This document shows positions 35,294-36,318 of a stretch of DNA of 64,000 nt, piece after piece. Position 1 is the stretch's first letter. Every line of letters starts with the position of its first letter. Position numbers and translations under genes: made by a program. Below the pieces are notes generated by a model that worked only from the letters and a program-made list of their open reading frames with translations, ran no database searches and had not been told where the DNA came from. Where the stretch lies: IMG/VR virus record IMGVR_UViG_2859810971_000007, one strand, 5' to 3'. Source of the DNA: a virus (Duplodnaviria > Heunggongvirae > Uroviricota > Caudoviricetes).

Positions 35294-36318
35294 GCATGCC
35301 CACTGAATGAGCCTATTCTTTTAGCTGATGGGACATGGACTACTCACGGGAATGTAAAAATTGGCGATCAGGTGGCGTCAGTAGACGGCAATCCGTCAAC
35401 TGTCACTGGGATATTCCCGCAGGGTGTTAGAGATGTTTACCGAGTCACATTTGAAGATGGTCGTTATGTTGATTGCGCAGGCGATCACCTATGGGAGGTC
35501 ACTAGTCGTGGATTCACGAAAGGCGAGAAACGCCGCGTGATAGATACCTTCGGGTTGAAGCGGTTGAGTGAAACGAAGAGGCACAAAAATGGCGTTAGGA
35601 TTCCTGAAATAACTGGTGACTTTGGCGACCACTCAGAGCCATTAGCATGGGTTATCGGCTCCCTTCTCGGGATGGTAGTCTTAGCAATGGGAGCGTGAAG
35701 TTTTCAAACGTCGAGCCATACATGATCGAGCGTATGAAGGCTGAACTGCCTGATTACAACTTCTCTGGAGATGGTAAGGACTGGCTGATATCAACGGCGC
35801 GTGGTCAGGTAAATCCACTCATGGAGACCCTGCGAGGTTATGGACTAATGGGGTGCACAGCAAAAAACAAATTCATCCCTCGTGTGTTTTTTTCCGCAAA
35901 TAAATCAACGCGTATAGGCATGCTGTGTGGTCTGCTTGAAACGGATGGGTATGTCGAGAAGGATGGAACGCTTGTTTTTTCCTCAGCAAGTGAAGAACTG
36001 CGCAATGGGGTTGTTCAACTGGTTAACTCACTCGGCGGGTCATGCCGGACGCGAGTTAAAACTGGCGTGACATACACATACAAGGACGATAAGCGGCATG
36101 GGATGGATTCATACGAGGCAAGAATCAGACTGACAAGAGAAATCAGGGAGGCCATCCGTTCACCACGACTCAATGGCAGATTAACTGCGCATCGATTCGA
36201 GGGCTGTGGGGTATTCGTCAGGAATGTTGAAAAAATCGGCAATGCAGAATGCTTGTGTATTATGGTCGATCACCCTCGCCACCTGTATGTAACCAGGGGA
36301 TATGTGGCGACGCATAAC
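35294..36318 (+). other. Intein with LAGLIDADG homing-endonuclease domain, carrying a 1-nt deletion
   Basis: Begins ACPLNEPILLADG after GVNGHGK; LAGLIDADG motifs LAWVIGSLLG(DG) and IGMLCGLLETDGYV; ends VATHN followed by T; frame breaks at GGG 35669-35671. Confidence 0.6.

Follow-up and report, generated by a model that had tools for sequence, protein, structure and literature searches.

A decayed, probable class 3 intein with a LAGLIDADG endonuclease domain in the primase-helicase gene of a lambdoid prophage

Class 3 inteins begin without an N-terminal Cys, Ser or Thr, carry a Trp(B:12)/Cys(F:4)/Thr(G:5) triplet (WCT), and are followed by Ser or Thr at position +1; the site of most of them is the ATPase P-loop of a helicase-type protein (PMC2807308). 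In the replication protein P of phage φ24B, Smith et al. (2012) described an intein; they noted that a Shigella flexneri orthologue shares 955 of 968 residues, and left the function of the φ24B intein undetermined (PMC3430580). Tori et al. (2010) treated the InBase entries ShP-Sfv-2a-2457T-n and ShP-Sfv-2a-301-n Primase as partial inteins that have no nucleophile at the N-terminus (PMC2807308). Here we analyze a stretch of 64,000 nucleotides (nt) from the virus record IMGVR_UViG_2859810971_000007, hereafter the window. We concluded that the segment at 35294–36318 is very probably a pseudogenised intein of class 3 whose homing endonuclease is of the double-motif LAGLIDADG kind, located between the Walker A Lys and Thr (GVNGHGK/T) of a T7-gp4-like primase-helicase, a replication gene of a lambdoid prophage.

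The insert can be compared with several described inteins. With the class 3 inteins of MP-Be DnaB, Msm DnaBi1 (6bs8) and MchDnaB1 (6rix/6riy) it shares a non-nucleophile at position 1 (Ala1 or other), WCT residues at the same alignment positions, THN followed by Thr or Ser at +1, and a site in a helicase P-loop. In contrast, the host of those inteins is DnaB rather than a gp4-like primase-helicase, identity is low outside the blocks, and the mycobacterial class 3 structures are mini-inteins without an endonuclease, whereas the intein family of the window keeps a full LAGLIDADG domain. PI-SceI (the VMA1 intein) also has a double LAGLIDADG domain nested within a Hint domain, but it is a class 1 intein (Cys1) with a eukaryotic V-ATPase host and an unrelated DNA target. 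The class 2 intein Mja KlbA shares Ala at position 1; however, KlbA inteins are archaeal and lack the WCT triplet found in the insert. Lastly, the intein in replication protein P of φ24B (vB_EcoP_24B) and Min27 is the same element, 99.3% identical in nucleotides over the whole insert and present in the same host gene at the same GK/T site. The window copy differs from it by a 1-bp deletion in LAGLIDADG motif 1 and by a host gene that is split by IS911.

Identity and class of the insert

The region is covered by two open reading frames (ORFs). The ORF at 34181..35698 (505 amino acids, aa) runs from a Toprim primase domain to ...LTLVNGVNGHGK, then reads ACPLNEPILLADG... and ends soon after LAWVIGSLLG. 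The ORF at 35647..36864 is one base out of register with the former; it reads ...DGSLSNGSVKF...IGMLCGLLETDGYV...CLCIMVDHPRHLYVTRGYVATHN-TEVVGHMALEAMRQG and then enters an insertion sequence (IS). At the 5' junction, AAG (35291–35293) encodes the Lys of GVNGHGK and GCA (35294–35296) encodes Ala1, and at the 3' junction CAT AAC (36313–36318) encodes His-Asn and ACC (36319–36321) encodes Thr+1. The insert so delimited is 1025 nt long in the window; intact copies have 1026 nt, which make up 342 codons (Ala1...Asn342). Repair in silico, by adding one G at 35669–35671 and removing 36773–38021 together with one GGAG, yielded a 968-aa protein with a 342-aa insert, which is the length of intact alleles. 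Every item that the initial annotation of this DNA had listed was present in the sequence at the position claimed, including both LAGLIDADG motifs (the first of them broken) and the THN end before Thr+1, which was read directly. Coordinates are given in Table 1.

The host gene is predicted to encode a T7 gp4-like bifunctional primase-helicase, in which a Toprim primase domain is joined to a hexameric-helicase ATPase of the RecA type that has a Walker A motif. The protein spliced in silico matched Pfam Toprim_2 (6.6e-12) and, with 27.9 bits, exceeded the AAA_25 cut-off of 27, while DnaB_C scored 22.8 bits, under its cut-off of 27. The host protein was 25% identical to T7 gp4 (E 1e-24), and the alignment placed GVNGHGK/T opposite SGSGMGK/S, the Walker A loop of T7 gp4. 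The insert thus parts the Walker A lysine from the Ser or Thr that follows it.

We searched 5426 complete E. coli genomes with a spliced query of 954 nt, made by joining 34794–35293 to 36319–36772. The query matched in one ungapped piece in 209 genomes, at 98–99.3% identity, and in intein-bearing genomes it matched as two halves only. Phage mEp043 encodes an insert-free protein of 626 aa with 99% aa identity to the spliced product, and an insert-free homologue from a Vibrio phage is 60% identical to it. When proteins were aligned, three insert-free proteins read GVNGHGK/TEVVGH or, in the Vibrio phage, GVNGHGK/SQVVGH, and the gap was exactly 342 residues. A search of a large protein collection, for which the intein C-part plus the C-extein served as query, returned almost exclusively insert-free proteins, among them hundreds of homologues of 624–629 aa in Enterobacterales (Klebsiella, Salmonella, Citrobacter, Leclercia, Pantoea, Pragia). 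That is, the insertion is in frame and absent from close orthologues, and its removal restores the host motif exactly. The initial annotation had predicted that clean excision would give GVNGHGKT, and the insert-free homologues do rejoin exactly, those of E. coli and mEp043 as GVNGHGK-T and that of the Vibrio phage as GVNGHGK-S; the proposal passed this test, whose failure the initial annotation had named as grounds for abandoning the intein.

The insert also matched known inteins. Among sequences in the PDB, the best match was the class 3 MchDnaB1 intein 6rix (2.3e-9), with PI-SceI at 8e-8; 6rix/6riy matched the N-terminal Hint half and, as a second stretch, blocks F and G at the C-terminal end, and PI-SceI matched the middle. 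A profile built from five relatives matched the PI-SceI endonuclease domain at 2.3e-15 over query positions 107–256, which cover both LAGLIDADG motifs, and matched the Hint structures gp41-1, MchDnaB1 and Msm DnaBi1 (6bs8) at 1e-10 to 1e-13. Pfam LAGLIDADG_3 was found at residues 208–263 (1.5e-8; 35.2 bits against a cut-off of 22.5). Each of the seven NCBIfam matches was to a model for a protein in which inteins are known (DnaB, RecA, RNR, RFC and others), and three of the seven models are explicitly named intein-containing. The Hint and LAGLIDADG matches, together with the exact insertion, uphold the original proposal, which placed an intein with a homing-endonuclease domain of the LAGLIDADG type in a prophage primase-helicase, at the Walker A loop. 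The Hint and LAGLIDADG searches that had been suggested for it gave the matches to LAGLIDADG_3, 6rix, PI-SceI and the Hint structures, though Hom_end_hint stayed under its cut-off (see below).

Residues with predicted catalytic roles could be placed by HMMER alignment with MchDnaB1. His65 and Trp67 of the insert stood opposite His65 and Trp67 of MchDnaB1, Cys322 stood opposite Cys124 ('aeclCimvdhprhlyvt' vs 'vpvrCvevdnpahlyla'), and Thr340-His-Asn stood opposite Thr143-His-Asn; the roles of the MchDnaB1 residues, including Cys124, are described elsewhere (PMC7664689). In a five-member family alignment L66, W67, T217 and D218 were invariant, and related inteins in DnaB and PhoH P-loops had the same Ala1...HLW...C...THN/T pattern. 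Judged by these alignments, the insert possesses splicing blocks A, B, F and G, a terminal His-Asn and a nucleophilic +1 residue, and the three sequence features of class 3 (Ala1; W67/C322/T340; Thr+1) are all present. Because the WCT triplet assigns the insert to class 3, its splicing route would be expected to begin at the block F cysteine. The two LAGLIDADG motifs have conserved acidic residues, Asp127 (...SLLGDGSL, in the repaired frame) and Asp218 (...LLETDGYV), within a domain that is homologous to known enzymes. The endonuclease frame is not intact in the window, where a 1-bp deletion falls within motif 1.

Table 1. Positions of the predicted intein, its host gene and the adjoining insertion sequences in the window
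Feature	Position	Strand	Remarks
N-extein	34181..35293	+	371 codons; Toprim primase domain and start of RecA-type helicase domain; ends ...GVNGHGK
Predicted class 3 intein with embedded double-motif LAGLIDADG homing endonuclease	35294..36318	+	No counterpart in insert-free alleles; Hint and LAGLIDADG matches
Block B His65-Leu66-Trp67 (predicted catalytic His and W of WCT)	35486..35494	+	Aligned with MchDnaB1 His65/Trp67
LAGLIDADG motif 1 (LAWVIGSLLG/DGSL), frame-broken	35642..35682	+	GGG at 35669–35671
LAGLIDADG motif 2 (IGMLCGLLETDGYV), conserved acidic Asp218	35914..35955	+	Aligned with PI-SceI motif LAGLIDSDGYV
Block F Cys322 (F:4), predicted initiating nucleophile	36256..36258	+	Aligned with MchDnaB1 Cys124
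Block G Thr340-His341-Asn342, then Thr+1 of C-extein	36310..36321	+	Read from sequence; THN aligned with MchDnaB1
C-extein part 1 (T+1 EVVGHMALE ... KGSG)	36319..36772	+	Joined to N-extein in insert-free alleles
IS911 (IS3 family) in C-extein	36773..38021	+	1249 bp; 99.1% identity to annotated IS911; TGAAGTGG terminal inverted repeats
C-extein part 2 (AITGLTDNLF ... ENVTEY, stop)	38026..38339	+	Frame colinear with 968-aa and 626-aa homologues once IS911 and one GGAG are removed
IS600 copy	32706..33969	-	Adjoins truncated lambda-type integrase (31767–32843 region) and last ~100 bp of O-like gene

Other readings of the insert were weighed against a class 3 intein. The initial annotation had taken the Ala start for a sign of a KlbA-type (class 2) intein, in which Thr+1 would attack the N-terminal junction directly, without a block F cysteine step; the absence of Cys, Ser or Thr at position 1 would agree with this. 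This class was mistaken, because class 2 inteins lack the WCT triplet: the class is defined by that lack and is known only from archaeal KlbA proteins (PMC2807308; PMC3196547), whereas W67, C322 and T340 are all present in the insert and aligned with a class 3 structure, and the host, a phage helicase P-loop, is a typical class 3 site. We therefore consider class 2 highly improbable. Even less credence is due to a class 1 intein that starts at Cys2 (ACPLNE...), with Ala counted to the N-extein. A Cys does adjoin the junction, and it is kept in the E. coli, Klebsiella-phage and Salmonella copies; yet insert-free alleles read GHGK/T without Ala, in DNA and in protein, which argues for excluding a start at Cys2 and fixes the intein boundary at Ala1. 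Moreover, related inteins keep Ala1, whereas their second residue is Met, Gln or Ile (AMAL, AQPL, AIPN).

Least credible of all is the alternative that the insert is a domain native to the helicase and does not splice, in favor of which nothing positive speaks. The insert breaks the Walker A Lys-Thr pair, orthologues at 98–99% identity are without it exactly, a full set of splice-junction motifs accompanies the matches to solved inteins, and the inducible phages Min27 and φ24B carry the insert in their apparent replication helicase gene. The insert occurs at >97% identity in E. coli genomes and phage records and therefore is not a product of chance.

Decay of the window copy and its surroundings

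The window reads GGG at 35669–35671, where three intact copies read GGGG, as expected from the initial annotation, which had reported one G missing inside motif 1. This was the sole difference in 102 aligned columns of a four-way DNA alignment, and, apart from the lost G, the whole window intein agrees base for base with the intact copy of FDAARGOS_943 (99.9% identity). An exact match to the 505-aa truncated product was found on one contig only of a large collection (CP026810.1, GCA_002949455.1). Other Shigella copies, including many from S. flexneri, are broken at other places.

The lost G could instead be a homopolymer assembly error, in which case the intein ORF would be intact in the real genome and the host gene still dead through IS911. 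Against a decayed intein, and in favor of such an error, stands the observation that no other base differs from the intact FDAARGOS_943 copy; the single contig with the truncated product, and other S. flexneri fragments that read through the run as SLLGDGSL, point the same way. On the other hand, when ~5.8 kb of the flanking chromosome were aligned with E. coli 55989, two other single-base indels came to light, neither of which is a homopolymer contraction, so that this small sample (two indels in ~5.8 kb) gave no sign of systematic homopolymer error. The locus is decaying, with IS911 and IS600 in it, and a real frameshift is thus unsurprising. We regard an assembly error as possible, though less likely than a genuine loss of the G. 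The conclusion drawn earlier that the host gene is dead was confirmed by the frameshift and the IS911 split, and it holds whether or not the G loss is real.

IS911 splits the C-extein, as had also been claimed. The element is nearly identical to annotated IS911, ends in terminal inverted repeats, and is flanked by the short target duplication GGAG (36769–36772 and 38022–38025), which is found once in the uninterrupted allele L002. Right after IS911, the window encodes AITGLTD (38026–38046) where E. coli, phage and Klebsiella-phage copies encode AITDLTD. The Gly variant also occurs in a S. flexneri fragment found on 194 contigs; it lies in a helicase motif and probably marks a lineage.

Upstream of the primase-helicase gene, window positions 33970–34166 correspond to 4554–4750 of allele L002, the 3' end of an O-like gene. 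The copy next to this remnant, annotated as IS600, joins a truncated integrase directly to the last ~100 bp of the O-like gene; missing in consequence are the repressor, cro and cII, along with most of the O-like gene. The IS600-bounded deletion starts at the 3' end of int, takes in the prophage immunity and early region, and covers the greater part of the O-like gene. Self-BLAST revealed five IS600 copies in the 64 kb, at 8229–9312 + 10617–10800 (a copy split by another insertion), 21261–22524, 32706–33969, 41457–42720 and 58327–59592. The prophage adjoins ybhC, on the side of lambda attB.

Several other features of the window were noted. Beyond an IS600 copy there is a second replication module, which consists of a DnaC/IstB-like ATPase gene (43217–44104) followed by an intact gene for a 463-aa DnaB-like helicase (44101–45492), whose P-loop ARPSMGK/TELAL is uninterrupted and without an intein. 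Remnants of two different lambdoid replication modules appear to be joined in the window. In the ninB-downstream region (39314–40286), a helix-turn-helix (HTH) antitoxin-like ORF lies at 39314–39622 (minus strand), and the matching region of FDAARGOS_943 is annotated with an HTH protein and a toxin of the RelE/ParE family, which suggests that the prophage carries a type II toxin-antitoxin pair. At 50528–52622, a phage terminase large-subunit ORF (Terminase_3, 263 aa), which seems to be truncated, precedes a transposase ORF of the IS3 family (rve, 279 aa), and portal, DUF2213 and major capsid genes come after the transposase ORF, at 53374–58089. Because the IS3-family ORF stands after the terminase and before the portal and capsid genes, the morphogenesis region is also interrupted by an IS.

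On the chromosomal side, a 608-aa ORF at 23323–25149 (minus strand) matches a region of FDAARGOS_943/944 annotated as ipaHb, a type III secretion system effector and E3 ubiquitin ligase. The ipaH gene marks the chromosome as of Shigella or enteroinvasive E. coli type, and FDAARGOS_943/944 are labeled E. coli but share the ipaHb feature. An IS1-like element at 27628–28395, 91% identical to IS1A of E. coli 55989, is located upstream of a shortened ybhJ (28457–30208; 583 aa compared with 753 aa in E. coli 55989), in which a single-base deletion has changed GGCGGCGG to GGCGGGG.

Distribution of the intein

The 1026-bp insert was present at an identity of at least 99% in 79 of the 5426 complete E. 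coli genomes, many of them O157:H7, and at >97% nucleotide identity in nine phage records. Phages that carry it include Min27, φ24B, Stx2a_F403, Stx2a_F451, phiXuzhou21-Stx2a and Stx2_16002, and the Klebsiella phage phiKp_30 has it at 97.2%. At the protein level, a 90%-identity cluster comprised 1494 members named from E. coli, S. flexneri, S. boydii and Salmonella enterica, while a protein search with the intein alone gave only six matches and missed the full-length 968-aa proteins. The initial annotation had called inteins uncommon in Enterobacteriaceae. This argument fails, because the intein is published and widespread in lambdoid prophages of E. coli, Shigella and Salmonella and occurs in a Klebsiella phage. 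Given the published descriptions and registry entries, which include EP-Min27 Primase of InBase, the element was therefore already known; it is ordinary, and in the window it is non-functional.

Related elements were seen beside it. About 51 other phages of the Stx2a type match only 65 nt of the insert (window 35324–35388). They carry a related class 3 intein of 339 aa that is 50% identical, with the Ala1/W/C/THN/T signature and a LAGLIDADG domain of its own. This second intein is located in the P-loop (ARPGMGK/.../TELAL) of a DnaB-like helicase, a different host gene but the same GK/T site (LC616031.1 Stx2_EH0505, 1868–4261). A rearranged remnant was seen in a 416-aa metagenomic protein: the N-terminal half of DnaB continues into a related class 3 intein for its first ~70 residues, up to SHLWEI, and a Mu-F-like domain (PF04233) is fused to these. 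In the Min27 record (EU311208.1, 4400–4800), the gene is split into 'P' (860 aa) and 'ORF31 putative DNA primase' by a C-extein frameshift near the A-rich FKNKTN codons. This frameshift is probably a sequencing error in the record, because all other copies are continuous.

Predicted splicing, homing and allele polymorphism

A mechanism for intact copies can be proposed by homology with the class 3 route established for MP-Be DnaB, Dra Snf2, Msm DnaBi1 and MchDnaB1. A 968-aa precursor would be translated with its P-loop split. Cys322 (F:4), aided by His65, Trp67 and Thr340, would then attack the Lys-Ala1 bond to form a branched thioester at block F, and the N-extein would be handed to the side chain of Thr+1. 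Cyclization of Asn342 would free the 342-aa intein, and an O-to-N acyl shift would complete a 626-aa protein with a normal GVNGHGKT loop. The endonuclease of the freed intein may cut insert-free alleles at the GK/T site, so that repair from an occupied allele would copy the intein in. Such homing would explain why occupied and empty alleles that are ~99% identical coexist. For the window copy, the lost G, IS911 in the C-extein and the IS600-bounded deletion would make both splicing and homing impossible.

Selection on the intein was estimated from the ratio of non-synonymous to synonymous polymorphism (pN/pS). Relative to phiKp_30, pN/pS was ~0.17 for the intein (18 synonymous and 10 non-synonymous differences), which shows that it is under purifying selection across the copies compared. 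The value for the endonuclease sub-domain rests on four to five differences only, and values for the Min27 C-extein are distorted by the frameshift in the Min27 record.

Several points weigh against this account of a splicing and homing intein, and they are set together here. Pfam Hom_end_hint scored 25.5 bits (1.5e-5), under its cut-off of 32.1 bits, and the Pfam Hom_end match was also under its cut-off. In the literature we found no splicing or endonuclease experiment on this intein, and homing was inferred from presence/absence polymorphism alone. The occupied and empty alleles also differ at the junction itself. Occupied alleles read AAG/intein/ACC in E. coli, Shigella and Min27 and AAA/intein/ACC in phiKp_30, whereas all five of the empty alleles sampled read AAA/ACG, with the differences at wobble positions; the natural empty site is GGTCACGGAAAA/ACGGAGGTTGTC. 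In addition, none of ~210 empty-site E. coli genomes exceeded 97.8% identity to a 90-nt junction query. Because of the wobble differences and this ceiling, the empty sites of today may not be substrates. Synonymous differences exactly at the insertion point could reflect either a co-conversion tract or empty sites that resist the endonuclease.

Two further ideas about intact copies can be put forward, although we think them improbable: the intein may act as a redox-gated switch of phage replication, and, independently of this, homing by the endonuclease may be continuing between lambdoid replication modules, in which case the uniform AAA/ACG empty sites would be resistant alleles. Oxidative stress is an inducer of Shiga toxin (Stx) phages. 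The catalytic Cys322 has Cys320 beside it and the block B residue Cys61 nearby, and in the presence of H2O2 it might enter a disulfide. An H2O2-linked disulfide has been demonstrated in M. smegmatis for its class 3 intein DnaBi1 (PMC6195587). If the switch were real, oxidative stress would be coupled to helicase maturation, and hence to the yield of toxin phage, in Stx2a phages such as φ24B and Min27. Neither idea applies to the dead copy in the window.

The weight of this work for discovery is little, as the literature and the intein registry already cover the element together with its host gene and site, and the window copy is a fossil. Its value is modest: the class is corrected from KlbA-like to class 3, and the intein is found to be common, not rare, in lambdoid prophages of Enterobacteriaceae. 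Lastly, the wobble-position difference at the insertion point could guide a homing or cleavage experiment on the φ24B/Min27 intein.

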